A DNA stretch of 64,000 bases, from contig OY761159.2 in the NCBI GenBank assembly GCA_963664395.2, positions 4,288,001 through 4,352,000 of the forward strand, written 5' to 3'. The notes beneath the pieces are model-generated. The model had not been told where the DNA came from. It made no database searches and worked only from the letters and a program-made list of their open reading frames with translations. Position numbers and translations under genes: made by a program. Below are positions 441-17,398 of this stretch, piece after piece (positions within the stretch are counted from its first letter, which is position 1; each line of letters starts with the position of its first letter). The stretch is from Candidatus Binatia bacterium. Lineage in GTDB: Bacteria > Desulfobacterota > Binatia > Bin18.

Positions 441-652
441 CCAAATGCACTCTCGCCGTCTTGCATCTCCTCGCTCAACGAGGCCCGGCCTGCCCAGATT
501 ACCTCAAGGCCTTTATATGGAAACAGAGGCGTAACCCCACCTTGCATCCGTAGAGGCTTGTGGCTAGGATCGCGGCAGTTCGTGTAACTGAACCTTCATT
601 CAGCCATTCGGCCAAACTACACACTATAAGTATTGAGAGAAGGGGACTCAGT

Positions 653-1897: not shown

Positions 1898-1910
1898 GGA
1901 AAGATATTTC

Positions 1911-3539
1911 ATGCACGGTAAACGCGGGCTCATATCCGTAGTCTGTCGCGTCCTCGGCGGGCTGTTACTCCTGGCGATCTCGGCCAATGTTTCGCCCTGT
2001 TACGGCTATTTCATGGACAAACAGGTTGATAAGGTCGTGAATACATGGTCACGCTTTGATCGCTTTCTGTCTACCTTTGATCCGGCGGGCCGGTACGTCC
2101 GACAGCCCGTAGAACGTCAGATCCCGGCCCTGACGTTTCGGGGGTTTCTCCGCCAATGGTCTGACGTCCAACTCTCAGGCGACCGCCGTGTCGGCAATCG
2201 GCGAAAAGACTTCCGTTTTTCCCAGATGCAGAATTTGCTGGAATTGGAACTCCACTACCAAGTCTCACCCAATATCGAAATAACCAATATCAATAACTTC
2301 ATATACGACGGTGTGTACAACTGGCAGGATTCTGCCGGTCTGTTTGCCTCCCGGACGAGCGAAACTTTCCGCGCCTATCATAACTTTGAACGCATCGTGC
2401 GCGAGCTGTATGTCAGCTATCGCACCCACAACCTGGATGTGGTTTTGGGCAAGCAGCAGATTGCCTGGGGTAAAATGGACGGCCAGTTCATTGATGTCAT
2501 CAACGGCATGGACAGGCGTGAGTCCGTCCAGCTTGAGTCGAGTGACTACGAGTGGCGCCGGCTGCCGGTCTGGATGGCGAATACGACCTATTTCTTTGGG
2601 GCAAACTCTCTCAACTTCCTGTGGATTCCGAACTTTGAGCAAGACCGCAATCCGGTCCCCGGCTCACCGTGGTATTCGCCCCTGGCTCCGCCCAGGGATA
2701 CGGAGACGAAAGCGCTCCTGGACGGCCGCCAAGACGCGACCGGGGATCAGTTCAGGGAGACGAAGCGGCCGTCTGCGGGCGACTTCGGCGACCATCAATA
2801 CGGCCTGCGGCTTGATGTTTCCATGGAACCGCTCACCTGGGGTCTCATTTATTATTACGCCTGGAATAAAAACCCGACGTCCTTCATTGTCGACCGCGAT
2901 ATCGATGCTGCCGGGGACCCCCATCTGACCTTTCAGCCGCGTTTTACCCGCATGCATCATCTCGGCATCACTGCCGACTATGCTTCCGCGCTCTCGAATA
3001 TGCCGCTTGTCGGCGAACTGCCCATGGTGCTGCGGGTTGAGGGTTTGTGGACCAAAGACGTTCCCTTCGCCGACTTTGACCATCAGCAGGCGGCGCGGGA
3101 CGGGAGTCTCAACTCGGGCATCATTCGGCGCGATACCCTGCGGGCCGCGATTGCGCTGGAGTTCGCCTTTCCCGGCAATACCTCTGCGATTATACAACCC
3201 TCACTCTTGTATACCTTTGACTGGCGTCGCAATCTCGGCGGGGGCTTTGGCGGAGGGATCGGAGATGAAATGAGCCTCCTGCCGGTCTTCTTTGTTGGGC
3301 GCCCGTTTCGCTTCACCCGTGACCGTTTGCGCCTGGAGTTGACCGTCGTTCCCGTTATCAGTCTGCCGCAGAAGAAATGGCAGGGCATCAAAACGAAATT
3401 TGTTTCGAGCTATCGCTTTTCCCAATTTGTTACCGGTCGCCTTATTTATACGGCGTTCAGTAGCGGTGATCGGACTGACCTGTACGGACAATATAACAAA
3501 TGGGACAATATCGGCTGGGAACTGAGTTACGAGTTCTAA
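1911..3539 (+). CDS. DUF1302-like outer-membrane beta-barrel protein
   Basis: Signal peptide, RELYVSY..GKQQIAWGKMD motif, C-terminal DNIGWELSYEF ending in Phe; precedes DUF1329-like genes. Confidence 0.65.
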   Translation: MHGKRGLISVVCRVLGGLLLLAISANVSPCYGYFMDKQVDKVVNTWSRFDRFLSTFDPAGRYVRQPVERQIPALTFRGFLRQWSDVQLSGDRRVGNRRKDFRFSQMQNLLELELHYQVSPNIEITNINNFIYDGVYNWQDSAGLFASRTSETFRAYHNFERIVRELYVSYRTHNLDVVLGKQQIAWGKMDGQFIDVINGMDRRESVQLESSDYEWRRLPVWMANTTYFFGANSLNFLWIPNFEQDRNPVPGSPWYSPLAPPRDTETKALLDGRQDATGDQFRETKRPSAGDFGDHQYGLRLDVSMEPLTWGLIYYYAWNKNPTSFIVDRDIDAAGDPHLTFQPRFTRMHHLGITADYASALSNMPLVGELPMVLRVEGLWTKDVPFADFDHQQAARDGSLNSGIIRRDTLRAAIALEFAFPGNTSAIIQPSLLYTFDWRRNLGGGFGGGIGDEMSLLPVFFVGRPFRFTRDRLRLELTVVPVISLPQKKWQGIKTKFVSSYRFSQFVTGRLIYTAFSSGDRTDLYGQYNKWDNIGWELSYEF

Positions 3540-3548
3540 CCGACCTGC

Positions 3549-4937
3549 GTGAAAGAGCTCTCACCGGACGATCATCTTATGCATAGACGCTTTTTTTTCC
3601 TGACGGTATGGGTCTTTTCTTTTCTCTCCAGCCTGGCGATAGCGATTGCTGGGGCTGCTGAGCAGAACGGCAGCCACCGGCAGACCTGGAAAACGGTAGC
3701 GGAGCTGTCCGAGGCGGAAAAGTCGCGTCTTGATTTCCGGGTCGATACCCCCCGAGATACGACGGTTCCATACCTCCCGGCCGAAGCCTATCCCTTTCAG
3801 CCGCCTTATACCGCGGAAGAGATGGGCTATCGGGCCATGGAATTCCCGCACATCGCCCGCTGGTCGCATGCTATGGCCGATGTGTTCGGCGCCATTACCG
3901 GCAACGGCTTTCTGGATGAAGGCATCACGCTGGGCTATAGCTATTATATCCCGGACGAAGATGGGGTGCCCGGTCAGCTCAGCATGACACCTGGGGAGGC
4001 CTATTTTCGGATGGTCTTCTTTTATACCTATCCGCCTGAGAATCAGGGCCTGCAGGACCTCTGGATCCTGAGACGGACAGACAAAGAGGAAACGACCAAA
4101 CTCGACAATTTTATCTATAGCCCAACATTGCGCCGCGTGCGTCGCCAGCCCCAACCCCGCCGTGATGCCCAATTCCCGAATAACGTCCAGACCTTTGACG
4201 ATGTGGTGGGGCGCGATGCCTGGGAGTTCTCCTGGCGGCTGCTTGGCACGGATGTGCTGCATGAGACCGTTCGTTTCCCAAATACCCGTCCGACAGTCAC
4301 CCTGGCCAAGCCCGACGGGAGTTTTAATGAGATCCCATCCGATCATATTAAAATGCTGGGCGACACGTATCCGCATTATACTGAAGACGGTGGAGTGGCC
4401 TGTTATGTGGTTGAGGCGACCAGACGAAAAGACTGGCTGCCCCACTATCGCATGGGCCGGCTCATCTATTGGCTCGATAAGCACAGTTTTTATCCGTTGC
4501 GAATTGAGCAGTATGACAATGACAACCAACTTCGGGTGATCGAGGTACGCAACGCCTATCTGGTCAATCCGGCACTGGAAGAACGTGGTTATGCCGGACT
4601 GTTCACCGTGTACTATGACATTGCTTTAGACCTGATGAGCTATAGCGCACATGATGCCCATTGGGTGAAGGAGTGGTCCCAAGAAGACCAGGATACGATG
4701 TTTGAGCCTGATTTTATGCGCCGCAATTGGCTCAAGTATCCGCTCAAATCCCAATCTCTGGTCTATTCTCCGGAAAAATTCTTTCTCCGCCCGCTCTTGT
4801 ATCCGGATAAATTCCCGCAGGACCGGAGCGTTGCCATCTCCGCAGAGCTGGAGCAGCGCTATCGTTTGCAGGAAGAAGCCGGACATCTAGTCTTCGACAT
4901 CTCCTCTCCGCTCATTGAGGTCAAAGCGCAACAGTAA
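3549..4937 (+). CDS. DUF1329-like / outer-membrane lipoprotein-sorting family periplasmic protein
   Basis: Signal peptide; YSPTLRRVRR, TFDD and IYWLDK..YPLRIEQYD motifs; start uncertain (3549 GTG or 3579 ATG). Confidence 0.65.
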   Translation: MKELSPDDHLMHRRFFFLTVWVFSFLSSLAIAIAGAAEQNGSHRQTWKTVAELSEAEKSRLDFRVDTPRDTTVPYLPAEAYPFQPPYTAEEMGYRAMEFPHIARWSHAMADVFGAITGNGFLDEGITLGYSYYIPDEDGVPGQLSMTPGEAYFRMVFFYTYPPENQGLQDLWILRRTDKEETTKLDNFIYSPTLRRVRRQPQPRRDAQFPNNVQTFDDVVGRDAWEFSWRLLGTDVLHETVRFPNTRPTVTLAKPDGSFNEIPSDHIKMLGDTYPHYTEDGGVACYVVEATRRKDWLPHYRMGRLIYWLDKHSFYPLRIEQYDNDNQLRVIEVRNAYLVNPALEERGYAGLFTVYYDIALDLMSYSAHDAHWVKEWSQEDQDTMFEPDFMRRNWLKYPLKSQSLVYSPEKFFLRPLLYPDKFPQDRSVAISAELEQRYRLQEEAGHLVFDISSPLIEVKAQQ

Positions 4938-4938
4938 G

Positions 4939-6282
4939 ATGGCTCTTCACGCGCAACAGCTCTTGTGGCTGCTTGTCTGCTGCCTGCTGTGTTCCGGCAG
5001 TCTGGGGGCCGCGACCGTGGCGGCAGACCAAGACGGTCTGACGCCGCAGAAAACCTGGACAACGGCTGCCGAGCTCACGGCCGAAGAAAAAGGAGTGCTG
5101 GATTTCCGTACGGACACGCCGCGAGATGCCAGCGTGCCCTATCTGCCGGCCGAGTCCTTCCCGTTTCAGCCGCCCTATACGGCGGAAGAAATGGCGCTGC
5201 GAGCCATGGAGTTCCCCCACTCGCCGTTCTGGGACTGCATCCTGATCGACATGGCGTTCTCGGTGACGAATTCAGGATTTATGGACCAACGCGTGACGCT
5301 TATTCCCATTCTGTATTTTCCTGAGAACGGCTTTGGAGAACATCTGTACGCGGCGCAGCCCGGCCAGGAAATCTATCGCTGGCTCTCCCAAAGCGTCTCT
5401 CCACCCGAACGGTACGGGAATCAGACCTTATGGATAGGCTATCGGACAGATAAGACCTTCCGGACGAAAATAGACATGTTCGCCTATTCTCCATCGCTGC
5501 GGCGAATCCGTCGTCAGCCGCAACCGCGGCGGGAAGACCGTTTACCAAACAGTGCCGCAACCTTCGATAATCTGATCGGACGCGATGCCTGGGAGTTCTC
5601 GTGGCGCATTCTCGGGACGGATGTTTTGCATCAGACGGTGCGTTTCCCCAAGACGCGCCAAACCGCGGTGCTGACCGACGAGAAAGGGCAGTACGTTGAA
5701 GTTGACGCCAAAGATCTCTCCCTCATGGGCAAAGAATACCCGCTCTATACCGCCGATGGTGGAGTCAAATGCTATGTGCTCGAAGCCATACCAAAATCCG
5801 ACTGGCTGCGTGACTACTATGCCCATAGGCTTATTTACTGGGTTGACCAATATGCGTTCTTTCCCTTGCGGATGGAAGAATATGACCGACAGGAGAATCT
5901 GAGTTTTGTGAACACCCGGATTGCGAGCCTTGCCAACCCGGCTCTTCAGGAACACGGCTACGCGGTTCAGTTTGACCTGTGGTGGGACGTGTCTATTGAC
6001 TTCCTGTCCGCCTCGACCCACGGTTTTGTCCCCCAGACCTGGTCAGCGGCAGACAAAAAGATATTCTTCAGCTCCGGATTCATGCGCCGCGAGTGGTTCC
6101 TTGTGCCGCCCAAGGGCCTGATGAGTCTCAACTCGCCGGACGAATTCTACCTGCGGCCCCCGCTCGAAGAGGGGAAATTCCCGGACTCGCGCTCTATCAG
6201 TTTGTCCCCTGGTCTACGGGCTCTGATTGAGGCCCAAGAGCGCGAGGGTAAGCTGGTGTTTGAGGAGGGAAGGGACGGCTAA
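4939..6282 (+). CDS. Second DUF1329-like protein (tandem paralog)
   Basis: Shares PYLPAE.(Y/F)PFQPPYTAEEM, RR(V/I)RRQPQPRR and GRDAWEFSWR.LGTDVLH with the previous ORF; ATG 1 nt after the upstream stop. Confidence 0.7.
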   Translation: MALHAQQLLWLLVCCLLCSGSLGAATVAADQDGLTPQKTWTTAAELTAEEKGVLDFRTDTPRDASVPYLPAESFPFQPPYTAEEMALRAMEFPHSPFWDCILIDMAFSVTNSGFMDQRVTLIPILYFPENGFGEHLYAAQPGQEIYRWLSQSVSPPERYGNQTLWIGYRTDKTFRTKIDMFAYSPSLRRIRRQPQPRREDRLPNSAATFDNLIGRDAWEFSWRILGTDVLHQTVRFPKTRQTAVLTDEKGQYVEVDAKDLSLMGKEYPLYTADGGVKCYVLEAIPKSDWLRDYYAHRLIYWVDQYAFFPLRMEEYDRQENLSFVNTRIASLANPALQEHGYAVQFDLWWDVSIDFLSASTHGFVPQTWSAADKKIFFSSGFMRREWFLVPPKGLMSLNSPDEFYLRPPLEEGKFPDSRSISLSPGLRALIEAQEREGKLVFEEGRDG

Positions 6283-6340
6283 GCGCGTCAGTACAGAGGG
6301 TACCACGGGCGGTTGCGGTTGCCGGTCCCCTCTGCGCGTC

Positions 6341-7456
6341 TTACTCCGTCGTGTGTGTATCTTGCCAGGCGCGGCCCATCGAGTCCGCGGCCAGAATGGC
6401 GTCGGCAACCATGTCAGGCTGCACGGCAAACGGTTCGTTATGGATGGTTTCTCCTTCCGCGGTCGCCCGCGTGGCCACTTGTTCAAGCAGGTCTTCCGGG
6501 AATTCGCTGAGCCCGATCTCGGCCAGGGTGATAGGCAGGCCGACCGCTGATGAAAACTCCAGAACCGGATCGATAACCGAGCGTGGCTGACCTTCGAGCA
6601 CTAATTGAGCCATCAGGCCGTAGGCGACTTTTTCCCCATGATAGTACGGATGGGTGAGCGGGGCTGCGGTGAGGCCATTATGGATGGCATGGGCTGCGGC
6701 AAGCCCTGAGGACTCGAAGCCCAGACCCGACAGCAGGGTGTTGGCTTCGACAAGCCGCTCCAGGGCTGGATTGACAACGTGACGTTCCACGGCCCGTTTC
6801 GCATCCGGACCGTCTTCAACCAGGATGTTGTAGCACAGCTCCGCCAGCTTTTCGGCGCTGCGCGTTGAGGCTCCCCCACGCATATTCTGGACATGACCGG
6901 CAACACAGGTTTTGGCCTCGAACCACGTGGCCAGCGCATCTCCCATCCCTGCCACCAGCAGCCTGGCCGGAGCTTGGGCGACAACATAGGTGTCCACCAC
7001 AACCAAATCCGGGTTCTTCCGATAAAAGCGATATTCCTGGAATACCCCTTCGGGAGTATAAATCACCGACAGCGCGCTGCACGGCGCATCACTTGAGGCA
7101 ATGCTTGGACAGTTGACGACAGGCAGATCAAGGTCGTCGGCGGCGGCCCGGGCCGCATCCAATACCTTCCCGCCGCCCGCTCCGATAATGACCTGAGCCT
7201 TATTCGCCCGCGCCGTTTCTTTGATACGTTCGATTTCAGGGTAGGAGCACTCCCCCCCGAACTGATGGACGACGTGGGTGATGCCGGCATCGTTCAAATG
7301 TTTCTGCCAGACTTCCGAGAGCAGCCGAATGGCACTTTTCCCGGCAACAATACAGGCCGGTCCCTGCAAGCCAATACGCTGCATTTCCGTTCCTAAGGCG
7401 GCAGTGGCGTGCTTCCCTTGTACGTAGTGGCTGGGGGCTGAAAAAACCGAGAGCAT
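6341..7456 (-). CDS. gldA: Glycerol dehydrogenase (GldA family)
   Basis: FSAPSHYVQG, GAGGGKVLD, IASSDAPCSALSVIY, GMGDALATWFEA, AAAHAIHNGLT and HGEKVAYG motifs; RBS before ATG 7456. Confidence 0.9.
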   Translation of the reverse strand: MLSVFSAPSHYVQGKHATAALGTEMQRIGLQGPACIVAGKSAIRLLSEVWQKHLNDAGITHVVHQFGGECSYPEIERIKETARANKAQVIIGAGGGKVLDAARAAADDLDLPVVNCPSIASSDAPCSALSVIYTPEGVFQEYRFYRKNPDLVVVDTYVVAQAPARLLVAGMGDALATWFEAKTCVAGHVQNMRGGASTRSAEKLAELCYNILVEDGPDAKRAVERHVVNPALERLVEANTLLSGLGFESSGLAAAHAIHNGLTAAPLTHPYYHGEKVAYGLMAQLVLEGQPRSVIDPVLEFSSAVGLPITLAEIGLSEFPEDLLEQVATRATAEGETIHNEPFAVQPDMVADAILAADSMGRAWQDTHTTE

Positions 7457-7582
7457 ATGTCCCTCCTTACCGATTGCTATTCCCTCAGATAGAGCAGGCA
7501 GTATAAACTGAGACGGGTTGACGCGGCAAGCAGGAGAGGGCCATTGGGACAAGAGGAGAGACGTTACTGTCGCCCCATATTG

Positions 7583-8437
7583 ATGAGCAGGATTCAGTAT
7601 CGGGTGCTCTGTCTCGTTGTCTTCGCCCTCTGGGGGGCTGGATGTTCTGAATTGCCGGGCGAACCACTCAAGTTAGGTCGGCATACGTATAGTAACGACC
7701 CCAGCGCCGAGCCGTGTCCGCTCGGTGAACGGAGCGGCCAGGGTGGTATGAGCAACGATGAGCGGACCGAACACGGGATTACGTATGCGGTTCGGACGCC
7801 GGCCAACTACAATCCAAAGATTCTTCACCCGCTCCTCATGGTCTATGCCCCAGCAGGCTCAAGTCGGTTTCACTCCGAGCGTCTGACCAATCTGACTTTC
7901 ACGGCAACGACGGCCGGCTTTGTCGTTGCCTACGCTGACTCCCTGCGTCTTTCACTCGAAGCCATTCCTGAACTCGGTACGATTCCACGGCTCATCGCCA
8001 AAAAATGGTGTGTTGATGAGCGGCGTGTCTATCTGACCGGCCATTCTGACGGTGGAACAGTTGCCTTGGCCCTGGCCCTTTTAGACGAGACACGCCACAT
8101 TCCCGCTGCGGTGGCTCCGAGTGCCGCCGGGTTCAGGCAGGCCGACCTCGAAACATTCTCGTGTCCCGAAGCCTTGCCTGCGCTGATTATGCACAGTGCG
8201 GATGACCATCTTTTCCCCGGCTACGGGGCTGATACGGCTGCTTGGCTGGCTTCGTGTAACGAGTGCCAGCCCCGTTCTATTGACAAGGACGAAAACGGTT
8301 GTATGGCCTACTCAGGCTGCACGGCGGCGAACAGAAAGACCATATACTGCGAAGGAACTGGTGCGCATAGGCATTGGCCCGCGCTCAATACGGCTCTCCT
8401 CTCGTTCTTCGTTGATATCGATAGCACCCTTCACTAA
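7583..8437 (+). CDS. PHB depolymerase/LpqC-like esterase, predicted lipoprotein
   Basis: Lipobox-like WGAGC; nucleophile elbow GHSDGG; HSADD and C-terminal HRHWP. Confidence 0.75.
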   Translation: MSRIQYRVLCLVVFALWGAGCSELPGEPLKLGRHTYSNDPSAEPCPLGERSGQGGMSNDERTEHGITYAVRTPANYNPKILHPLLMVYAPAGSSRFHSERLTNLTFTATTAGFVVAYADSLRLSLEAIPELGTIPRLIAKKWCVDERRVYLTGHSDGGTVALALALLDETRHIPAAVAPSAAGFRQADLETFSCPEALPALIMHSADDHLFPGYGADTAAWLASCNECQPRSIDKDENGCMAYSGCTAANRKTIYCEGTGAHRHWPALNTALLSFFVDIDSTLH

Positions 8438-8528
8438 ATAGGGCTCGCGCCCTGGAGTTGTCTCCGCTCCCTCAGCCTGCTATCTCAGTACCGTTGGTAA
8501 ATGACTGAAATTTCGTAAGAATTGACTG

Positions 8529-9101
8529 ATGCGACGAGCCTGCCGAATCTTCCTTCTCATATCCGCAGTGGCGACGCTCTGCCTGGCTCTTCCTGTGTCA
8601 TCCTGGGCGCACCGGGATAGAGGGCCGGGAGACCTGTGCCGCCGAGAGGTCGGTGCTTCACTCTTGCATATTACGTTCTATCAGACCCAATTTGACCCGG
8701 TCACAGAATATTGTGAAGAAATTCCGCGGGTGGGCAATGCTTTCCTGGTCGTGGACGTGACTCCGGATCTATGGGAAATGCCGTTCGGCGTCCAACTCGT
8801 TGCCTCAGATGAATCTGGACAGTCGAGTACGATACTGTCGCTGCCTTCACAAGTGTATGAACGTGGCGTGGCCAACGCTGAAGTCTTTGTGAAGGCCGGC
8901 ATGAGCTATGAAGTGCGTGTCGCGCTTGGACTTGAAGGTGAACCAGAACCGCGTAAATTTTTATTTCCCTTTCAGGTTGCAGCATGGTACAAGGCTATGG
9001 TCGGGCCAGCGCTGATTGTGATCGGAGTCGTTATCGTCATTGCGATATCGGTAATCCGTTATCAGATCACCTCTCGGAGCAGAGAAGCGCTGGTGGAATA
9101 A
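8529..9101 (+). CDS. pmoD: PmoD/AmoD-like copper protein (copy 1)
   Basis: Signal peptide, DLC-x7-LLHITFYQ...EYCEEIPRVG, C-terminal TM helix; directly upstream of xmoC. Confidence 0.75.
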   Translation: MRRACRIFLLISAVATLCLALPVSSWAHRDRGPGDLCRREVGASLLHITFYQTQFDPVTEYCEEIPRVGNAFLVVDVTPDLWEMPFGVQLVASDESGQSSTILSLPSQVYERGVANAEVFVKAGMSYEVRVALGLEGEPEPRKFLFPFQVAAWYKAMVGPALIVIGVVIVIAISVIRYQITSRSREALVE

Positions 9102-9151
9102 AGAGAGAGAGTGTAAAGTAACGTCGTTATTACTATTGAGGAGGGATACGC

Positions 9152-10000
9152 ATGGCTCAGGCGCAAGCAGTACAAAACGTACCGAAAGGTTCTGGCGATG
9201 GTTCTCTGACAAGTGGCAGCTCAGTCAACCCGACTGATTGGTCAGTCGGGTGGCATCCTCTATTCTGGGGGTGTGGGCTTATTATGCTTGCCAACGTCTT
9301 TTTCTGGTGTTGGAACTATGCCTTTATGTTCACGGCCGGACTGAACTCAGCGAGTGCTGAATTCACGCTGTATTACCGGACGCTGTTCTGGGGCGAACTA
9401 ATTGTCTTAGGCGTGTTTAGTGGCGTGTGGTTTGGCTGGCTCATGCGGAATGGCCGGGCCGTTGAGGGACAAGAATGCTCACCCGCCGAGGAGACGCGTC
9501 GCATCGCGATTTTGTGGAGCCTGATTGGCGCGACGAGTCTGGCAATCTATATGGAAGCCAGCTTCTGGCCGAACTGGGACGGCTCGTGGCACCAGACCAT
9601 GGTGCGTGACACCGCGCTCACACCGACCCACATCCCGATGTTCTACTTTTTCTTCCCGCTCTCCGTCGTGTTAGCAGTTGGCACCTACGTCTACGGGCGA
9701 TTCCACATTCCGGCGCTGTACGGCAAGGATAAAGGCTTTCCCTGGTCGTTCTTTTTGCTGATCAGTGCCTGTGTGCTCGAATGCATGGCCGTTGCCGCCA
9801 ATGAGTGGGGCCATAGCCTGTGGATCTCCGAAGAGATTTTCTCCGTTCCGTTTCACTGGCCGTTTGTGATTTATGGCTGGCTTGCCGCCGGCATGTTTGC
9901 GGTGTGGGGTGAAACCCTGGTGCGCATGTTCGAGGTCGAGAAGGCCGAAGAGGCTGCTCATCCGGAATCTTCACTCGAGTCGCCGCTAGCTGCTGATTAA
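9152..10000 (+). CDS. xmoC: Copper membrane monooxygenase subunit C (PmoC/AmoC family)
   Basis: DGSWHQTMVRDTALTPTH (CuC D,H,H) and NEWGHSLWISEEIFSVPFHWPF (CuD N,H,H); GAGGAGG RBS. Confidence 0.93.
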   Translation: MAQAQAVQNVPKGSGDGSLTSGSSVNPTDWSVGWHPLFWGCGLIMLANVFFWCWNYAFMFTAGLNSASAEFTLYYRTLFWGELIVLGVFSGVWFGWLMRNGRAVEGQECSPAEETRRIAILWSLIGATSLAIYMEASFWPNWDGSWHQTMVRDTALTPTHIPMFYFFFPLSVVLAVGTYVYGRFHIPALYGKDKGFPWSFFLLISACVLECMAVAANEWGHSLWISEEIFSVPFHWPFVIYGWLAAGMFAVWGETLVRMFEVEKAEEAAHPESSLESPLAAD

Positions 10001-10062
10001 TAATCGGCTCAGGTTTGGCTCGATAAACGTATCGACAATCCTCGTGCAGAGAGGAAGTGCGC

Positions 10063-10866
10063 ATGGCGGCAGACACCACAACCGTAACGGACATCACCGG
10101 TGCAGCCGAACGGCAACGTCGGCTCGAACTCAAGGAGCTGCTGAACAAGAAATACAAGTGGCTTGGTTGGAAGTGGGATCTTGTCTTCTGGACGACGGCT
10201 ATTTTCGTAGTTGCCGGTGCCGCTGACATCACCAAGCAGCTGTTTGCCGGTGACTGGGATCACTGGACGGATTGGAAAGATCAGCAGTGGTGGCCGGTGA
10301 TCACGGCTTTTGCCACGATTATCATTCCGTCGGCGCTCCAGTACATTCAGTGGGCAGCTTGGCGATTCCCGACTGGCGCGACCTACACCGCCTGCTGTCT
10401 CTTTCTGGCTGCCTGGGCCGGGCGTTATTTCCAGTGGGACTTGGCGGCCAACTATCCGCTGAATTTCGTGTGGCCGGCCTCCGTCGTCTGCGCTGGAATC
10501 CTGATGGACTGGACCTTAATGAAGACCAAGAGTTTTATCCTCACCTCGTTAATCGGTGCCCATGTCTGGGCGATCGCGGTGTGGGCCTATAATTACGTCC
10601 CCTTAGCCGCCTTTCTCCAGCCGGCCTATTTCATGGACCATGTGGTGACGGTTGCCGACGTCCAGGGCATTGCCTATATCCGCTCCCAGACGCCGGAATA
10701 CCTCCGGCTTATTGAGCGGGGTGCGTTGCGGAGTTTCCTGGGCGAGACGCAATACGTTTCCCTGGCCTTTGGGGGAACGGCGGCCTTTGTTGGCTACTGG
10801 ATCGGTCAGTTTATTGGCCGTTATCTGGCGGTATGGCCTATTCGGCGTTATCTGAAGATCGTGTGA
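10063..10866 (+). CDS. xmoA: Copper membrane monooxygenase subunit A (PmoA/AmoA family)
   Basis: GDWDHWTDWKD, RFPTGAT, YPLNFVWP and ADVQGIAYIRSQTPEYLRLIERGALRSF motifs; start 10057 GTG or 10063 ATG. Confidence 0.93.
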   Translation: MAADTTTVTDITGAAERQRRLELKELLNKKYKWLGWKWDLVFWTTAIFVVAGAADITKQLFAGDWDHWTDWKDQQWWPVITAFATIIIPSALQYIQWAAWRFPTGATYTACCLFLAAWAGRYFQWDLAANYPLNFVWPASVVCAGILMDWTLMKTKSFILTSLIGAHVWAIAVWAYNYVPLAAFLQPAYFMDHVVTVADVQGIAYIRSQTPEYLRLIERGALRSFLGETQYVSLAFGGTAAFVGYWIGQFIGRYLAVWPIRRYLKIV

Positions 10867-10867
10867 G

Positions 10868-11227
10868 ATGAATATTATGTGCGGCATGTCTTTCAAACGT
10901 CAGCAATCTGCCCGGTATGTCAGCGTCTTCTCTTTCTTCATCGCGCTGCTTGCCGGTGTGTCTCTCTATCCTTCCCTCGCGCATGCCCACGGTATGAACG
11001 CCGCTGAAATGGCCCCGCCTATTATTACCGCGGGCATACTGGCGTTCGTCTGCTACTGGCTCGTGGTTTTGTGGCCGGCATCGAAAGGTGCCGAAACCGG
11101 CCTGCAGTGGCCGCCGGAAACGGACCGGGCTATTCGCATCAAACGCAAGCCTCGCTTACGGGTCATAGAAACGAAGCCTCAGCTCCCGGACGAACAGCCT
11201 GAGAGCAGGCAGGTGGCCGATGGCTAA
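10868..11227 (+). CDS. Small uncharacterised membrane protein between xmoA and xmoB
   Basis: Starts 1 nt after the xmoA stop and overlaps the xmoB start by 8 nt; signal peptide ending AHA, mature HGMNAAEM, one TM helix, basic tail. Confidence 0.7.
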   Translation: MNIMCGMSFKRQQSARYVSVFSFFIALLAGVSLYPSLAHAHGMNAAEMAPPIITAGILAFVCYWLVVLWPASKGAETGLQWPPETDRAIRIKRKPRLRVIETKPQLPDEQPESRQVADG

Positions 11228-12479
11228 GCGGTTCGTGATCGGTAGTGTCGGCGTGTTAGGCGTCATCCTGGCCGTTGTCGTCGCCAAGACGCCCAGCGCC
11301 TTTGCCCATGGTGAGGCTGCCGACGAACCGTTCTTGAAAAACATGACTACGGCTTTCTTCAACGTCAGCGTTTCGCCGACCGAAATCGAGGTGGGAGAGC
11401 CGGTCAAGGTGACGGGCTCGGTCAAAATCCTCGAGACCTGGCCGCATACGCTGGAGACCCCGGAAATCGCTTCCATCATGCCGGTCGTCCCCGGGCCGGT
11501 CTTTGTACTCAGGGAGCGTTTTGTCAACGGAACGGCCGCCATCGGCTCGTTTTTCGCCCAAAAGGGGGACATTTACGAGTTTGAAATGGAGCTGGTTGGC
11601 AAAGAGCCAGGGGACTGGCATGTGCATCCCGGTATCGCCATCTATGGGACCGGTACCCTGATTGGGCCTGGCGAATGGGTTAAAGTCAAACCAAGTGCTG
11701 AACCCTTCTCATTCCCGCTCACACTGATGTCTGGTGAGACGATTGAACTCGGTACGTATGGAGGATCATTCGTCTGGTGGTGGTCGTTTGCCGGATTTGT
11801 CTTGGGGGTTATCTGGATACTGTACTGGACGACGAATAAAAGAACGGTGACCAATCTCGCAGTCACTGTCCAGCTGCCAGTGAATGACGATGCCCCCGAT
11901 ATTGGCCTCATCACGCCGCGTGACCATATGTGGATGAATGTTATCGTTGGCGTGACCCTGGTTATGCTGGTTGTCGGTTGGACGTATGCCACATCAAATG
12001 CGCCAGTTCGCTGGCCGCAGCAAACGGACTGGTTTACTCCGGAATTCATTTCTTCTGGTGAGAAAATTGTTGAGGCCCGGGCCAGCGGGGCGACGTATGA
12101 CGAAGCGAGTGAAACGCTTGAGATGAAGGTCCAAGTGACGAATGTTGTTGAGAGCGACATCGAACTCAAGCAACTGACTATAGCGATGGCGACCTTCGTG
12201 AACGGACCGGAAGCCGAACAGGCGAAAGCCGGTCCGAGTGATTTTGTTGGTCGGCTCGAAGTCCAGCCGGACGGGCCGATTGCTCCGGGCGAAAATAAAG
12301 AGCTGACCCTGACTATTTCAAGTAGTATTTTCAGCGAAGAGCGTCTCATCCCGACGCAAGCACCGCAGCAGTTTATTGGCGCAGTCTTACGCTTTGAGAA
12401 TGGGAACGACGGTCATGAGTTAGTGACGGTCCGTTCAAACGTCGTCCCCACTCAGTTCCGTTCTACCTATCTGCCATAA
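11220..12479 (+). CDS. xmoB: Copper membrane monooxygenase subunit B (PmoB/AmoB family)
   Basis: Signal peptide then AHGE, PGPVFV, GDWHVHP, GPGEWV, two central TM helices, PIAPGE and ERL motifs. Confidence 0.93.
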   Translation: MAKRFVIGSVGVLGVILAVVVAKTPSAFAHGEAADEPFLKNMTTAFFNVSVSPTEIEVGEPVKVTGSVKILETWPHTLETPEIASIMPVVPGPVFVLRERFVNGTAAIGSFFAQKGDIYEFEMELVGKEPGDWHVHPGIAIYGTGTLIGPGEWVKVKPSAEPFSFPLTLMSGETIELGTYGGSFVWWWSFAGFVLGVIWILYWTTNKRTVTNLAVTVQLPVNDDAPDIGLITPRDHMWMNVIVGVTLVMLVVGWTYATSNAPVRWPQQTDWFTPEFISSGEKIVEARASGATYDEASETLEMKVQVTNVVESDIELKQLTIAMATFVNGPEAEQAKAGPSDFVGRLEVQPDGPIAPGENKELTLTISSSIFSEERLIPTQAPQQFIGAVLRFENGNDGHELVTVRSNVVPTQFRSTYLP

Positions 12480-12520
12480 GCTCCAGAGCGGGGACAGACC
12501 TCCCCGCGGGTGGAGCCTCG

Positions 12521-13093
12521 TTGGACAGCGTTGTGAAACTCTTCTCCCTTGTTGCCATGCTCCTCGTCCCAACGGGAGCATGGGGACATGGGGGTGTCGC
12601 CATGGATATGGACCCCTGCATAGAGCGGGCCGGCGCCTATCTGATCCATTTTTCTGCCTACCAGCCGCAAGAGTACGCAACCGAAGAATTCTGTCGGAGC
12701 GTTCCTCTGACCGGGAGTACGATTCTCGTTTTTGATCTGATTGATCCCGAATTGCGCAAGAAATCAGCTGCGGTGCGCATTATTAAGGAAACCAATACTG
12801 CTGAACCTCGACTGTTGCTCGATATCCCGGCACGGGTGTATCCCAGCGGCGTGGTGAATGCTGAAGTCCATTTTGACACACCTGGCCAGTATACGGCCCT
12901 GATGACGCTTGACGGGGTTGATGGGTCTGTGCGGTTTCCCATTCGAGTCGCTTCACTCTCAAATACCATGCTGGTCCTGATCGCGGGCCTGATCATCGGC
13001 TGCGGCGCTGGCTATTATGTCGTCGGTGGCAAACTCGGTTGGCCACCGTTTTCGGTGAAAAAGGTTCCGTCACTCACATTGGTCAAGGGATAG
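12521..13093 (+). CDS. pmoD: PmoD/AmoD-like copper protein (copy 2)
   Basis: HGGVAMDMDPC-x7-LIHFSAYQP...EEFCRSVPLTGSTILVFD, YPSGVV, C-terminal TM; TTG start. Confidence 0.8.
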   Translation: MDSVVKLFSLVAMLLVPTGAWGHGGVAMDMDPCIERAGAYLIHFSAYQPQEYATEEFCRSVPLTGSTILVFDLIDPELRKKSAAVRIIKETNTAEPRLLLDIPARVYPSGVVNAEVHFDTPGQYTALMTLDGVDGSVRFPIRVASLSNTMLVLIAGLIIGCGAGYYVVGGKLGWPPFSVKKVPSLTLVKG

Positions 13094-13151
13094 GTGCGAA
13101 ACCACCTATCCCCCCTTTTCCTAACGCTCTGTTCACAGTACATATTGAACG

Positions 13152-14846
13152 ATGTGGCTGCGTGGTCTTCTCTTTTTCTGCCTTCTTCTGAGTGTACTCG
13201 CTATCGGTACGCTTTTTCTGCTTCCTCGTGCCTGGCTCCCCCGCCCGATACAAGACTTTGCGTATCAATATATCGGCGAAGAGTCCTACCAAAAGCCGCC
13301 TCCCAGTCGCGAAATAAGCCCTGTCAGTGTGGAGCCATTTTGTCTGGACAGACACCCAGACTGGCGGAAACCTCAGACTATTGAGGGCGTTGCCGTGGAA
13401 GCATCACCGGTTTGTGATCCAGATAATCCAGCCGACATTGCGGCCTTTGTCAAAGGGACGAATAATATTGCTCTGCACACGCTCATGGAGACGCGGCTCA
13501 CGCCCAATACGGTGGTGAAGGAGAACGACCGAGACGGGGATGGCGACCCGGATGAGATTCACATCCGACTTGAAGTCATAGAATTGAACGGACACTCACC
13601 GGATGACCCCGCCCCATTCCCCGCCTATTTCATTGCGCCTGGCGTACAGCCCGGGCTGTGGGTTTTTGCTCCAAAATCACGCGGCATGGCGACGGAGAAT
13701 TTTGAAAGTGAACAGGCGCACCCGACCTTGAGAGCCCCGTCTCCGGTGATTCGTATAGAGCAGGGTGATACGCTCCGGGTGACCTTGGAGAATACACACT
13801 ATCTGCCGCATACCATTCACTTCCATGGGGTTGACCATCCCTTTGTTGACGCCGCCGGCGAGGGAAACGACGGTGTTCCCATTGTGAGTGAAATGCCAGT
13901 CACACCAGGGGAGAGTCGCACCTATGAGATGACCCCGCGTCAAACGGGCACGATGTTTTACCACTGCCACGTCCAACCTCATGTCCATATTCTGATGGGA
14001 CTCCAGGGCATGTTTGTTGTTGAAGAGAACCGGCCGAATAACTGGCTCCAAACGCTCAATATTGGAGCCGGTCGGGTGCGCGCTGTCTCTGCGGCAGTCA
14101 GAGAGTCGTATGATCGGGAATTCGACCTGCACTACCAAGACATCGACCCGGCGTTGAATAACATTATTCAGACCGCGACGGATCCCAGATTAATCGCCGA
14201 AGCGACGAATCGGGGTTATGACATTACGGATCAAGAACCTGACTATTTCTTACTAAACGGACGGTCATTTCCCTATACGACCCGCGAGTCGCTTGTTGTT
14301 GTTGCCCCAAATGAACGGGTCAAACTGCGTGTCCTCAACGGCGGAGCGGAAGGAATCTCTCTGCATACGCATGGGCATAAAGTCAAAATCACGCATTATG
14401 ACGGCGTCGAACATAATCCGGCTGCTCAAATCACCCGCGATGTGGTATGGCTGAGCCCCGCCCAACGGGTAGATCTTCTCCTCAATACAACTGATGACGG
14501 ACTGCATAATTATGGGCAAGGCATCTGGCTGCTCCACGACCATAAGGAAAAGGCCATCACAACTGATGGGATCAACCCTGGTGGCAATATCAGTGCCATT
14601 GTCTATCAGGATTACTTGGACGCATCCGGTCAGCCGAAAACGCAGGGGATGGATTGGGCGCCGTTTTTCACCAAGGAGTATTATCAAAAAAAGCTTCCCA
14701 TCTGGGCTGGCCTGGAGGACTTTAACCTTTTTGGAGAGGCGGGTACTCGTTCCCTGCCCTTGAGTTCCGCACTCATACTCGGGATAGGTATCGGCTTCCT
14801 CATCGGCGCGGCTTGTGCCTTTGGGCGATTTACCCGACGCCGATGA
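13152..14846 (+). CDS. Membrane-anchored two-domain multicopper oxidase
   Basis: HTIHFHG and YHCHVQPHVHILMGL (type 1 Cu) in domain 1; LHTHGH and WLLHDH in domain 2; hydrophobic N- and C-terminal segments. Confidence 0.88.
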   Translation: MWLRGLLFFCLLLSVLAIGTLFLLPRAWLPRPIQDFAYQYIGEESYQKPPPSREISPVSVEPFCLDRHPDWRKPQTIEGVAVEASPVCDPDNPADIAAFVKGTNNIALHTLMETRLTPNTVVKENDRDGDGDPDEIHIRLEVIELNGHSPDDPAPFPAYFIAPGVQPGLWVFAPKSRGMATENFESEQAHPTLRAPSPVIRIEQGDTLRVTLENTHYLPHTIHFHGVDHPFVDAAGEGNDGVPIVSEMPVTPGESRTYEMTPRQTGTMFYHCHVQPHVHILMGLQGMFVVEENRPNNWLQTLNIGAGRVRAVSAAVRESYDREFDLHYQDIDPALNNIIQTATDPRLIAEATNRGYDITDQEPDYFLLNGRSFPYTTRESLVVVAPNERVKLRVLNGGAEGISLHTHGHKVKITHYDGVEHNPAAQITRDVVWLSPAQRVDLLLNTTDDGLHNYGQGIWLLHDHKEKAITTDGINPGGNISAIVYQDYLDASGQPKTQGMDWAPFFTKEYYQKKLPIWAGLEDFNLFGEAGTRSLPLSSALILGIGIGFLIGAACAFGRFTRRR

Positions 14847-15580
14847 GGGAATACCAAATGGATTTCTTTCTGAGGAAGAATGATTATAGGGGGACGGTGG
14901 CGTCCGGGAGAAGGCAGCTCCATAGGGCCGTCTCTACACTGATTGTCTATACCGTGTCCACATTGCTTTCCGGCGCGATCGGCTCGGCTCAAGAGCATGC
15001 TCATCACCATAAACATCATGGGATGCAGCTCGATACTGCGGGTATGGTGATGAATGAAAATACGGACCAGCTCCCCCGGGGCTGCCCCCGCATTTCAGGT
15101 GAGCACGAGCTTACCGTTCGTGCCGGAAAAGAATTTGCCCACCCAGGGACGATGTTCGCGTATGATCGGAACGAATGGGATTTTAAGCCATGTACGAAAC
15201 TCACGGTGACGCTCATTAATACGGACAGTGTTCGTCACCAGTGGATGCTGCACGGCCTTCCGCGCTATATCTACCCCCAGGGCATGTTTACGCTTGAAGT
15301 CGCGGGCAAAGGGCAGCGGACAGGTACCTTTATCCTTCCGCCCGGAGACAAGACCTATCTGGTGCACTGTGATGTTCCTCAGCATATGGAAAAGGGAATG
15401 AAGGCCCAGCTCAAGGTCGGGGCTGGAAATGGGGATCTGCCCAGCATTCCCGGGGTGACCGGACCGCGTCTGCGGGACCCGTATTCAATGGCCTGGAACT
15501 GGTGGACGCATGGTGCTGTCTTTGTATTCGGTATCGTCAGTATGATCTTCGTGGGAAGAAGGTTGCGCCTTTTTCCCTAG
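14843..15580 (+). CDS. Cupredoxin (type 1 blue-copper) protein with His-rich N-terminus and C-terminal TM anchor
   Basis: HAHHHKHHGM; HQWMLHG and HCDVPQHMEKGM (C-x4-H-x4-M); ATGA overlap with the MCO stop. Confidence 0.8.
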   Translation: MREYQMDFFLRKNDYRGTVASGRRQLHRAVSTLIVYTVSTLLSGAIGSAQEHAHHHKHHGMQLDTAGMVMNENTDQLPRGCPRISGEHELTVRAGKEFAHPGTMFAYDRNEWDFKPCTKLTVTLINTDSVRHQWMLHGLPRYIYPQGMFTLEVAGKGQRTGTFILPPGDKTYLVHCDVPQHMEKGMKAQLKVGAGNGDLPSIPGVTGPRLRDPYSMAWNWWTHGAVFVFGIVSMIFVGRRLRLFP

Positions 15581-15685
15581 GAGTTCGGGGCGTCATATGC
15601 CCTCTTTCTCTTGACCTCCAGTCTAAAAATAAGTAGGGTTCGACCACATTTTTCGATTGTCAATTACTCCGAGGAGGCATTATCC

Positions 15686-17398
15686 ATGCGAGGTTACTGG
15701 TTGTCGATATTTTTACAGGTGGCAGTCTCTCTCATGCTTCTCTCTCCAACCGCACTTTACGCTGACGCGCCTGCCAAGAACGCTGACGCGCTTCAGCCGG
15801 TTACGCACGAGCGTTTGGTCAAAGGAACGGCCAACTACGCTGACTGGCTGATGTACGGTGGGAATTATGAAGGCTGGCGATTTAGTCCCCTAACGGATAT
15901 TGACCGCCAGAATGTCAAAAAACTCCAGGCCGCCTGGATTTTTCAAACCGGGGTGCCAGCCCAAATGCAAGCCTCACCCGTGGTTGCCGATGGCGTGATG
16001 TATCTTACCGCGGCCTACAACAAGCTCTTTGCTTTAGACGCCGTAACTGGCAAACCGCTCTGGAAATATGACCATGATCTGCCGGACGATCTGCGGATTT
16101 GCTGCGGACCGGGCAACCGGGGAGCTGCGCTGGCTGGGGATAAGGTCATTATGGCCACGCTGGATGCGCGTATTGTCGCACTCAACAGGAAAACCGGTGC
16201 AGTCGTGTGGAATACCCAAGCCGACGACTATGCCGACGGCTTCAGCTTTACCCTGTCACCACTGATTGTTCGAGACAACGTCATTGTTGGTATTGCGGGC
16301 GGTGAATACGGTATTCGCGGCTATATTGATGCCTATGATCTTAAGACCGGAAAACGCAAATGGCGTCGTTATACGGTGCCTGACGAAGGCGAGCCTGGTG
16401 CCGAGACCTGGGCTGGTGATTCGTATAAACAAGGCGGCGGACCGGCTTGGGTGACTGGCTCGTATGATGCGGATCTTGACCTGGTTTATTGGGCAACGGG
16501 TAATCCGGCCCCGGACTGGAACGGGGATGGACGTGAGGGTGATAATCTCTACACCAACTCGGTGTTAGCTCTTGAGCCTGATAGCGGTGAGATCAAATGG
16601 TACTTCCAATTCACCCCGCACGACGTCTGGGACTATGATGGCAACACGGGGATATTTCTGCTCGACGTGATGCGCAGTGGCCAGTCTGTCAAAGCCTTAG
16701 CCCAGCCCAATCGGAACGGATATATGTATGTCCTTAATCGTGGGGATGGAAAGTTCCTGCACGGCTCCCAATACGTTGAGCAGCTCAACTGGGCGAAAGG
16801 GCTGGACGAAAATGGCCGGCCGCTTATTGACCCCAAGTATGTTCCCATGGAGGGAGGCAATCCTGAATTAATCTGTCCCGGGAATGCGGGGGGACAAAAC
16901 GGATCGTATGCTGCGGCCTACAGCCCGCTTGCCAATCTCATCTTTGTCCCGACGATTGAGAGTTGCGGAAAAATGGAAAAGGCCAAATCTATTTTCATCA
17001 AAGGCATCCCATTCTGGGGCGGGGGGCCTGGACAAACGCAGGGCGACCTCGGCACAGCATACGGTCACGTCACGGCCATAGACCCCACCAGGGGTGAAGT
17101 GAAGTGGCGCTATAAGGACGAGTGGCCGATGGTTGGTGGGGCACTCGCTACAGCCGGGGGACTCGTATTTACCGGCAACCAAAAGGGATTCGCTCTTGCC
17201 TTGGATGACGCGACGGGTGCGGTCTTGTGGAGGTTCCAAACTGGCTCGGCTGTTCGGGGACAACCGATTACATACAAAGTTGGTGGTAAACAATATGTTG
17301 CTGTTCCCAGTGGCGCCGGGGGGTTGGTCGTGGATATCGTCGGTAAATATCCCCAAACAACACCGGGTAGCTCTGTTGTGGTATTTGCGCTCCCGTGA
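15686..17398 (+). CDS. PQQ-dependent alcohol dehydrogenase, putative lanthanide-binding type
   Basis: Signal peptide, vicinal CC (RICCGPGNRG), GGEYGIRG, WATGNPAP, FTPHDVWDYDGN; no CxxCH haem motif; GAGGAGG RBS. Confidence 0.92.
   Translation: MRGYWLSIFLQVAVSLMLLSPTALYADAPAKNADALQPVTHERLVKGTANYADWLMYGGNYEGWRFSPLTDIDRQNVKKLQAAWIFQTGVPAQMQASPVVADGVMYLTAAYNKLFALDAVTGKPLWKYDHDLPDDLRICCGPGNRGAALAGDKVIMATLDARIVALNRKTGAVVWNTQADDYADGFSFTLSPLIVRDNVIVGIAGGEYGIRGYIDAYDLKTGKRKWRRYTVPDEGEPGAETWAGDSYKQGGGPAWVTGSYDADLDLVYWATGNPAPDWNGDGREGDNLYTNSVLALEPDSGEIKWYFQFTPHDVWDYDGNTGIFLLDVMRSGQSVKALAQPNRNGYMYVLNRGDGKFLHGSQYVEQLNWAKGLDENGRPLIDPKYVPMEGGNPELICPGNAGGQNGSYAAAYSPLANLIFVPTIESCGKMEKAKSIFIKGIPFWGGGPGQTQGDLGTAYGHVTAIDPTRGEVKWRYKDEWPMVGGALATAGGLVFTGNQKGFALALDDATGAVLWRFQTGSAVRGQPITYKVGGKQYVAVPSGAGGLVVDIVGKYPQTTPGSSVVVFALP

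Follow-up and report, generated by a model that had tools for sequence, protein, structure and literature searches.

A divergent hydrocarbon-monooxygenase-like copper enzyme in a Candidatus Binatia genome, with a linked PedH-type dehydrogenase and a new family of small proteins

What can a copper membrane monooxygenase (CuMMO) that keeps some of the copper-site residues debated for particulate methane monooxygenase (pMMO), and lacks others, reveal about where such enzymes carry out their chemistry, and what does it oxidize? This question is raised by the xmoCAB operon in a stretch of 64,000 nucleotides from a Candidatus Binatia bacterium (assembly GCA_963664395.2, contig OY761159.2, positions 4,288,001 to 4,352,000), here called the window. 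An initial annotation of positions 9560-11640, which fall within xmoC, xmoA and xmoB, all on the plus strand, had read the residue pattern as a natural test that favours a PmoC-based active site. The analysis presented here supports this interpretation in part, and shows that it was largely anticipated by the literature. The most plausible reading, held with moderate confidence, is that XmoCAB is a functional CuMMO of the hydrocarbon monooxygenase (HMO)/bmoA-like type, with catalysis in the XmoC pocket and C2-C4 alkanes as its likeliest substrates. The new elements are a species-specific replacement of phenylalanine by histidine in XmoA, a family of small proteins encoded by orfX, and the operon linkage to a PedH-like pyrroloquinoline quinone (PQQ) dehydrogenase.

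The operon

The monooxygenase genes are contiguous on the plus strand from 9152 to 12479 in the order C-A-B, with orfX inserted between A and B, and related loci have the same arrangement.

xmoC, 9152..10000, plus strand: 282 aa; PF04896 (AmoC), E 7.9e-42
xmoA, 10063..10866, plus strand: 267 aa from ATG 10063; PF02461 (AMO), E 1.8e-52
XmoA His69 codon CAC, 10261..10263, plus strand: position of the Phe in GDWDFW (Bath F50)
orfX, 10868..11227, plus strand: 119 aa, between xmoA and xmoB
xmoB, 11220..12479, plus strand: 419 aa; PF04744 (Monooxygenase_B), E 9.2e-70; signal peptide ending AFA/HGE (cleavage at the slash)

Residue numbers in XmoA follow the longer open reading frame (ORF) from GTG 10057, and those in XmoB and XmoC are likewise counted from their ORFs. 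The complete gene order, again on the plus strand, is pmoD-like, xmoC, xmoA, orfX, xmoB, pmoD-like, multicopper oxidase (MCO), cupredoxin and PQQ alcohol dehydrogenase. XmoC, XmoA and XmoB score 143.7, 179.1 and 236.2 bits with their Pfam models, above all three gathering cut-offs (26.7, 27.5 and 22.7). The equivalog models for pMMO and ammonia monooxygenase (AMO), namely NCBIfam TIGR03078-80 and NF041557/640/641, are missed by all three subunits, with scores at roughly half of the cut-offs: 156 versus 319 and 140 versus 281 bits for C, 190 versus 290 (AmoA_BACT) and 164 versus 318 (TIGR03080) for A, and 263 versus 336 and 179 versus 395 for B. As judged from these homologies, XmoCAB is a genuine but divergent CuMMO.

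Metal-site residues and their spread

Residues were called from HMMER alignments of XmoB to 3rgb_A, XmoA to 1yew_B and XmoC to 4phz_K, 7s4m_G and 3rfr_C, the XmoC references being Methylocystis PmoC chains; the corresponding Bath PmoC positions, which we take to be E154, D156, H160, H173, N227, H231 and H245, were transferred to XmoC. Every ligand of the three copper sites that the initial annotation had described as kept was recovered in these alignments, specifically XmoB H30, H134 and H136 for CuB (Bath PmoB H33, H137 and H139), XmoC D143, H147 and H160 for CuC (DGSWHQ..TPTH) and XmoC N217, H221 and H235 for CuD (NEWGH..PFH). The losses that it had listed are equally real. The bis-His pair of XmoB is gone, with A45 in place of H48 (TAFF versus IHWY) and K69 in place of H72 (VKIL versus FHVF). 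The proposed tricopper D-site, for which PmoA His38, Met42, Glu100, Asn103 and Arg104 have been named (PMC12576850), is reduced in XmoA to D66 and D68 (Bath PmoA D47 and D49), since D57 replaces H38, Q61 replaces M42 and A119 replaces E100, while T59 stands at H40, G122 at N103 and, in XmoC, N141 at the glutamate of PmoC 'EQDGTWH' (the E154 position). XmoA also carries H69 where Bath PmoA has F50, and XmoC reads HIPMFY where the Methylocystis PmoC chains read HIIEFY (I175P, E176M). The lost residues are not restored by a shifted register, as direct reading of the translation finds neither His nor Met within XmoA residues 47-65.

Relative to the pMMOs of Bath and Methylocystis (3rgb, 7s4h, 4phz, 7s4m), the window enzyme thus has the same three subunits, CuB, CuC and CuD ligands, PmoC fold and PmoA GDWD motif, and differs in its XmoC identity of about 28-33% in the fold alignments, in the absence of the bis-His pair, in the extra gene within the operon, and in the substitutions PmoA H38D, M42Q, E100A, N103G and F50H and PmoC E154N, I175P and E176M. 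An AlphaFold2 (AF2) model of XmoC, built from a 21-row alignment with a mean pLDDT of 62.5, matches PmoC/AmoC chains in Foldseek at TMt 0.71-0.78, among them 7s4m_C, 9cl6_C and 7s4h_C with prob 1.00 and TMt 0.71-0.77.

To place these residues in a wider context, 80 related loci were fetched and their orthologues assigned by BLASTP, with hits covering less than 70% of the query removed; the resulting sets hold 74 XmoC, 80 XmoA and 72 XmoB sequences from Binatia, Actinomycetota and Dormibacterota, and nine of the loci (L072-L080) are non-Binatia (Actinomycetota, Dormibacterota or Vicinamibacterales). The CuB histidines are present in 72 of 72 XmoB orthologues, and all 74 XmoC orthologues have the complete CuC and CuD ligand sets. 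The bis-His positions are devoid of histidine throughout (72/72), with A in 68, G in 3 and S in 1 at position 45, and K in 55, R in 16 and Q in 1 at position 69. Among the XmoA orthologues, the H38 position is D in 78 and N in 1, with one gap, the M42 position is Q in 55 and L in 24, and the E100 position is A in 54, S in 16, T in 7 and Q in 3; the PmoC E154 and E176 positions are N and M, respectively, in all 74. All nine non-Binatia loci carry the same substitutions at the bis-His, PmoA H38/M42/E100 and PmoC E154/E176 positions. Because these Actinomycetota-type loci share the whole pattern, the comparison indicates that the absence of the bis-His and tricopper residues is ancestral to a large clade of HMO-like enzymes and not a trait of this genome.

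The initial annotation had also proposed a remodelled substrate pocket, a claim that holds only in part. Changes beside the pocket phenylalanines do exist (I175P and E176M, together with HSLWIS versus HTFWFM in the CuD helix), but they are clade-wide. Conversely, XmoC F164, F230 and F238, which are invariant in 21 of 21 sequences and align with what we take to be the pocket-lining PmoC F177, F240 and F248, are retained, and the F50H change occurs in a single species. One published passage on the PmoC pocket speaks of 'three conserved phenylalanine residues', without residue numbers.

The genome encodes a second xmoCAB, without orfX, on the minus strand (L083, G000:C1:2380001-2396000; C at 8560-9366, A at 7771-8514 and B at 6400-7686 of that region). 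Its XmoA is 38% identical to the window XmoA, and the enzyme keeps PmoA H38, M42, D47, D49 and F50 and PmoC E154, that is, five of the six proposed tricopper residues, though neither the bis-His pair nor E100 (Ala). Its clade is rarer and sparsely sampled, with only about ten relatives that reach 53% identity; within the genus, 22 of the 26 genomes have two XmoA matches.

Constraint and expression

The argument of the initial annotation applied only if the enzyme is active, and this looks to be the case. Pairwise Nei-Gojobori comparison of the window with 13 orthologous loci gives dN/dS values of 0.03-0.09 for xmoC, 0.03-0.08 for xmoA and 0.06-0.13 for xmoB, or 0.05-0.10 for the three genes in the eight closest pairs (dS <1). 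All reading frames of the operon are intact, and a single private substitution was found in the three subunits. These values among orthologues reveal purifying and not relaxed selection.

Near-identical sequence was present in 20 of 24 listed public sequencing runs from 8 studies, six of these runs being RNA libraries. In a comparison of contigs over window positions 8400-15700, one RNA-library contig (run X3) of 3578 nt spans positions 9001-12578 with 4 differences; it begins 151 nt ahead of xmoC and continues for 99 nt after xmoB. RNA contigs from a second study (X17) cover the operon at 95-99% identity. The depth of the source run X1 over the region is low (3.96). Transcription of Binatota pmoA in sponges has already been published (PMC9999580).

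Enzyme class and substrate

The closest relatives of XmoA come from Candidatus Binatia and Binataceae metagenome-assembled genomes (MAGs), at 75-97% identity, followed at 59-69% by sequences from Dormibacterota, Actinomycetes, Acidimicrobiia and one Nocardioides sp. MAG. In a FastTree phylogeny of 41 XmoA rows, none of them a characterised HMO, pMMO or AMO, the window falls into a Binatia group of 18 (support 98) that joins an Actinomycetota/Dormibacterota group of 12 to form a 30-row clade on a long branch (support 100). Three contigs with this Binatia-type operon (L021, L028 and L071; XmoA identity 83-88%) belong to MAGs whose record titles name Klebsiella pneumoniae or Enterobacteriaceae, which likely reflects binning or labelling errors in the public records.

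This type of enzyme is not new to the literature. The consulted passages of Murphy 2021 (PMC8262859) describe Binatota CuMMOs in CAB, CAxB or CAxxB order, assigned to TUSC and 'Actinobacteria/SAR324' bmoA-like clusters, with conserved CuB histidines and the substrate left unresolved. The window operon agrees with that description in phylum, in its C-A-x-B order with a hypothetical 'x', in the CuB histidines and in pmoD, reported there for some genomes; those passages do not discuss the CuC and CuD sites or the tricopper residues, nor do they say what 'x' is or describe a module of MCO, cupredoxin and PedH-type dehydrogenase. Later work names the Binatota enzymes HMOs (PMC12533140), and a preprint places Binatales pmoA-like sequences apart from verified pmoA (10.64898/2026.02.02.703227). 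By sequence, XmoCAB belongs to this published Actinobacteria/SAR324-type HMO/bmoA-like clade, which groups with short-chain alkane oxidisers. The characterised HmoCAB of Mycobacterium NBB4 and BmoCAB of Nocardioides CF8 would represent the sister group of the window XmoA, a placement made via MAG relatives that include the Nocardioides sp. MAG, and the literature gives actinobacterial HMO and butane monooxygenase (BMO) a C2-C4 substrate range (PMC8262859, PMC13058606). Unlike in the Binatia loci, orfX was not found in any of the nine Actinomycetota/Dormibacterota/Vicinamibacterales loci.

From pMMO, AMO and mycobacterial HMO we infer a mechanism in which the substrate would be hydroxylated in the XmoC pocket with CuC (D143/H147/H160) and CuD (N217/H221/H235), while CuB in XmoB would be retained as a structural or electron/proton-relay site. 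Substrates would be short-chain alkanes (C2-C4) rather than, or besides, methane. The composition of the operon favours C2+ alkanes over methane, if indirectly, because the linked dehydrogenase is of the PedH (ethanol) type and the true XoxF of the genome is encoded elsewhere.

Could XmoCAB instead be a true pMMO, used together with XoxF by a sponge-associated methanotroph? Sponge studies do take the Binatota gene as a methane monooxygenase and interpret its transcripts as methane oxidation (PMC9999580), the pMMO copper ligands other than bis-His are all kept, and the genome does carry a homologue of XoxF-type lanthanide methanol dehydrogenase (L085, G000:C1:1313119-1314708, minus strand) that scores 746 bits to 4mae. 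Yet this homologue is linked to neither of the two CuMMO operons and lies about 3 Mb away on the contig from the window operon, whose own dehydrogenase is PedH-like; the subunits score at about half of the pMMO/AMO equivalog cut-offs; XmoA groups with Actinomycetota-type sequences and with no pMMO-named sequence; and the preprint cited above keeps the Binatales sequences outside verified pmoA. A true pMMO is considered unlikely, and an alkane-oxidizing HMO-like enzyme remains the preferred reading.

Several points nevertheless weigh against that preference. The function of any Binatia CuMMO is so far predicted from sequence, and the tie to the characterised HMO and BMO runs through MAG relatives and published trees. 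The presence of a bona fide XoxF leaves room for methane oxidation, and similarity to PedH does not fix the substrate of the dehydrogenase. In the AF2 model of XmoC, the very segments that hold the ligands (139-160 and 218-235) have pLDDT values below 50, and the RNA evidence consists of assembled contigs, which are uninformative on transcript ends, strand and level.

The active-site debate

Does the pattern then settle the active site of pMMO in favour of PmoC, as the initial annotation had proposed? The bis-His pair and four of the six tricopper residues are indeed absent while CuC and CuD are invariant, in genes that are constrained and present in RNA libraries. However, CuB is invariant as well, exactly like CuC and CuD, so that XmoCAB cannot separate a PmoB from a PmoC site. 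The pattern is, moreover, that of an entire clade that has already been published, and XmoCAB is a weak witness against any site of methane oxidation because it may not oxidise methane at all. The proposed conclusions already stand from Verrucomicrobia, cryoEM, product-analogue binding, HMO mutagenesis and quantum refinement. Specifically, conservation of His48 is poor and only in Bath is the bis-His site occupied (PMC11725843); Verrucomicrobia lack CuB, and CuC and CuD are highly conserved and form a product-analogue pocket (PMC11725843, PMC13058606); no copper is supported at the trinuclear site (PMC12576850); and in a mycobacterial HMO, mutation of CuC ligands abolishes the oxidation of ethane and butane, whereas some activity is left in a CuB mutant (PMC13058606). 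The discriminating natural test is thus provided by the Verrucomicrobia without CuB ligands, and is already known. That the window constitutes a natural experiment deciding the question is accordingly judged quite improbable; for this debate it adds little, repeating in one more clade the accepted conservation of CuC/CuD and the dispensability of the bis-His and tricopper residues.

A species-specific histidine in XmoA

The exchange of PmoA F50 for histidine (His69), which the initial annotation had listed, is real but belongs to one species and not to the enzyme type. The position is F in 80 of 80 XmoA orthologues, with codon TTC in the 14 loci inspected, two bases apart from the CAC of the window; in 134 further relatives it is F in 121, M in 11 and H in none, the motif being absent from 2. 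Among the columns of C, A and B in which all other rows agree, His69 is the only one where the window deviates, while some other loci deviate at 4-7. Contigs from X3 (the RNA library with 4 differences) and X4 (3 differences) carry CAC too, since all their listed differences fall outside the codon, and the identical 267-aa XmoA protein (ATG 10063) is recorded on 14 contigs. The F50-to-H change is thus restricted to one species, newly described, and not an assembly error.

That relaxed selection has left the xmo genes as relics, or that they are inactive, with His69 a sequencing or assembly error, is scarcely credible and was rejected: the residue does fall on a phenylalanine found in all 80 orthologues, and the source run reaches a depth of only 3.96 over the region, but the dN/dS values of 0.03-0.13, the intact frames, the one private change against 4-7 in some loci, the unchanged two-base codon in contigs of two other studies and the 14 records of the exact protein all speak against it.

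As for its position, residue 69 is plausibly near the active site because it directly follows transmembrane helix (TM) 1. According to an AMO structure paper, AmoA TM1 and AmoC TM3-6 form a hydrophobic channel whose apex holds the copper pair. A literature search on pMMO PmoA Phe50 found nothing. Next to D47/D49, at the upper end of a helix that helps to wall the active-site channel, the histidine may act as a ligand or a proton relay.

OrfX

The gene between xmoA and xmoB starts 1 nt past the stop codon of xmoA, and its last 8 nt overlap with the beginning of xmoB. Its product has a signal peptide ending A-H-A, a predicted mature N-terminus HGMNAAEM, a TM helix of the form PP..T..F..YW.V.LWP and a basic tail (IRIKRKPRLRVIE). 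The 21 aligned sequences share one layout: the signal peptide closes with small-x-Ala, the next residue is always His, G(G)M..E..PP comes after it, and a helix that ends in YW.V.LWP leads into the basic tail. A40, H41, P50, P51, T54, F60, Y63, W64, W69 and P70 are invariant in 21/21. The gene evolves under constraint (dN/dS 0.15-0.27), and a hidden Markov model of the family detects it in 70 of the 80 loci, always between xmoA and xmoB. It is missed in L057, whose sequence is cut off shortly past xmoA, and in the nine non-Binatia loci L072-L080.

OrfX had no match in Pfam or NCBIfam, a phmmer search of all PDB chains, including the extra helices of pMMO and AMO, gave chance-level hits only (best E 0.17, to a ribosomal protein), and a look-up in the ESM Atlas gave no usable match. 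A profile search of 1.84 billion representatives recovered 98 clusters at E <= 1e-3, of which 89 have the helix motif and 80 have at least 38 residues before it; small-x-small-His is present, at the distance expected, in all 80 of the latter. In 301 genomes of the class, OrfX occurs in 63, PF02461 in 68 and both in 62, counts that include one unpublished genome (G403) and related genomes that are not independent of one another. The sole OrfX-only genome is an 84%-complete assembly of 800 contigs, and the six XmoA-only genomes have other XmoA types. OrfX thus co-occurs almost perfectly with this type of xmoA and is a newly described family of small proteins.

Further members of the family were seen outside this arrangement. 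An orphan paralogue in the same genome (L084:6182-6379, G000:C1:1872182-1872379; ..WAYA/HRGFGPAELG..YWVVMLWP) lies in an intergenic gap far from the xmo operons, and many genomes of the genus have a similar second match. At one locus (L068:6790-7456) orfX is present as a tandem pair, which gives the CAxxB form, and in a 248-aa protein (P0246) the C-terminal part of XmoA is fused to OrfX, probably as an artefact of gene calling or a frameshift.

The nearest counterparts are the supernumerary helices of CuMMO structures (23 aa in Methylocystis Rockwell pMMO, 46 aa in N. europaea AMO, and AmoD in N. halophila AMO), which are small, single-pass and CuMMO-tied like OrfX and pack against PmoC/AmoC (PMC11725843, PMC12804982). 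Unlike these helices, OrfX is longer and operon-encoded, and has a signal peptide whose predicted removal would leave an invariant His at the N-terminus. Co-folding of mature OrfX (41-119) with XmoC, XmoA and XmoB gave ipSAE values of 0.01 and 0.00 (mark 0.32), which, in a run that had no controls, speak neither for nor against binding. We tentatively entertain the possibility that OrfX is a fourth operon-encoded subunit or a copper partner, with a predicted histidine-brace-like site at the periplasmic membrane face near CuC/CuD. A signal peptide followed by His is in fact common to four proteins of the operon, with cleavage sites inferred from the -3/-1 rule: PmoD-like 1 (SWA/HRD), OrfX (AHA/HGM), XmoB (AFA/HGE) and PmoD-like 2 (AWG/HGG). 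The operon may therefore encode a relay of copper proteins with a predicted His at +1, comprising XmoB, OrfX and both PmoD-like proteins.

Accessory genes

The remaining genes of the operon flank the monooxygenase on both sides.

pmoD-like gene 1, 8529..9101, plus strand: 190 aa; phmmer to PmoD 6cpd_A, E 2.1e-05
pmoD-like gene 2, 12521..13093, plus strand: 190 aa; phmmer to PmoD 6cpd_A, E 6e-11
multicopper oxidase, 13152..14846, plus strand: 564 aa; PF07732, PF07731 and PF00394
membrane-anchored cupredoxin-like protein, 14813..15580, plus strand: 255 aa; weak PF07731, E 1.9e-4
PQQ-dependent alcohol dehydrogenase, PedH type, 15611..17398, plus strand: 595 aa; TIGR03075, 594 bits; PF01011, E 2.6e-88

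The two PmoD-like proteins are paralogues with 27% identity and show the hallmarks of PmoD/AmoD homology, namely the two family cysteines and the histidine in a Cx7LxH...C motif, the second Cys lying in 'EYC/EFC', and a C-terminal TM helix (hydrophobic C-terminus). The product of gene 1 has a signal peptide and a periplasmic cupredoxin-like domain and gave no match in Pfam or NCBIfam; its gene lies upstream of xmoC in other Binatia loci as well. Both genes are constrained (dN/dS 0.10-0.23 for gene 1 and 0.11-0.28 for gene 2). As at this locus, pmoD of the PmoD/AmoD family (6cpd) has been reported beside MCO genes and further pmoD copies (PMC6189053). CuA formation is confined to homologues with Cx7MxHxnC (Fisher 2018, PMC6189053), and in this respect the window copies differ from CuA-forming PmoD: the Cx7MxH motif is absent from both, Leu replacing Met.

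The MCO has a C-terminal hydrophobic anchor, and its closest solved relatives are two-domain MCOs (2zwn_A, E 1.5e-31; 3g5w_A, E 1.8e-29); it is constrained (dN/dS 0.05-0.09) and conserved downstream of xmoB/pmoD in Binatia loci. The cupredoxin, which follows the MCO in related loci, has an H...C-x4-H-x4-M pattern, as read from the translation. The PQQ dehydrogenase exceeds the TIGR03075 cut-off, and its best solved relatives are PedH chains 6zcv and 6zcw (413 and 411 bits) versus 333-334 bits for XoxF chains, with MxaF also lower; the gene is syntenic in 18 loci, immediately following the other operon genes in 16 of them and preceding them in 2. Three more PQQ dehydrogenases of the genome exceed the same cut-off. 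Together, the MCO, the type-1-like cupredoxin and the PedH-like dehydrogenase, whose order behind the monooxygenase is conserved, may form a periplasmic module for copper handling or electron return.

Upstream of the operon (560-7552) the window encodes a family III CoA-transferase, a DUF1302 protein and two DUF1329/LolA-like proteins; a further gene there, at 6341-7552 on the minus strand, encodes an iron-type alcohol dehydrogenase.

Implications

The findings shift attention from the copper-site pattern to what surrounds it. The natural F50H variant, beside the active-site channel, offers a testable change, and the OrfX family provides a concrete candidate for the supernumerary subunits seen in CuMMO structures. 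Finally, the linkage to a PedH-like dehydrogenase argues that the widely cited 'pmoA' of sponge and soil Binatia sits in an ethanol-type alcohol oxidation module, a point that matters for the question of treating these bacteria as methane sinks.

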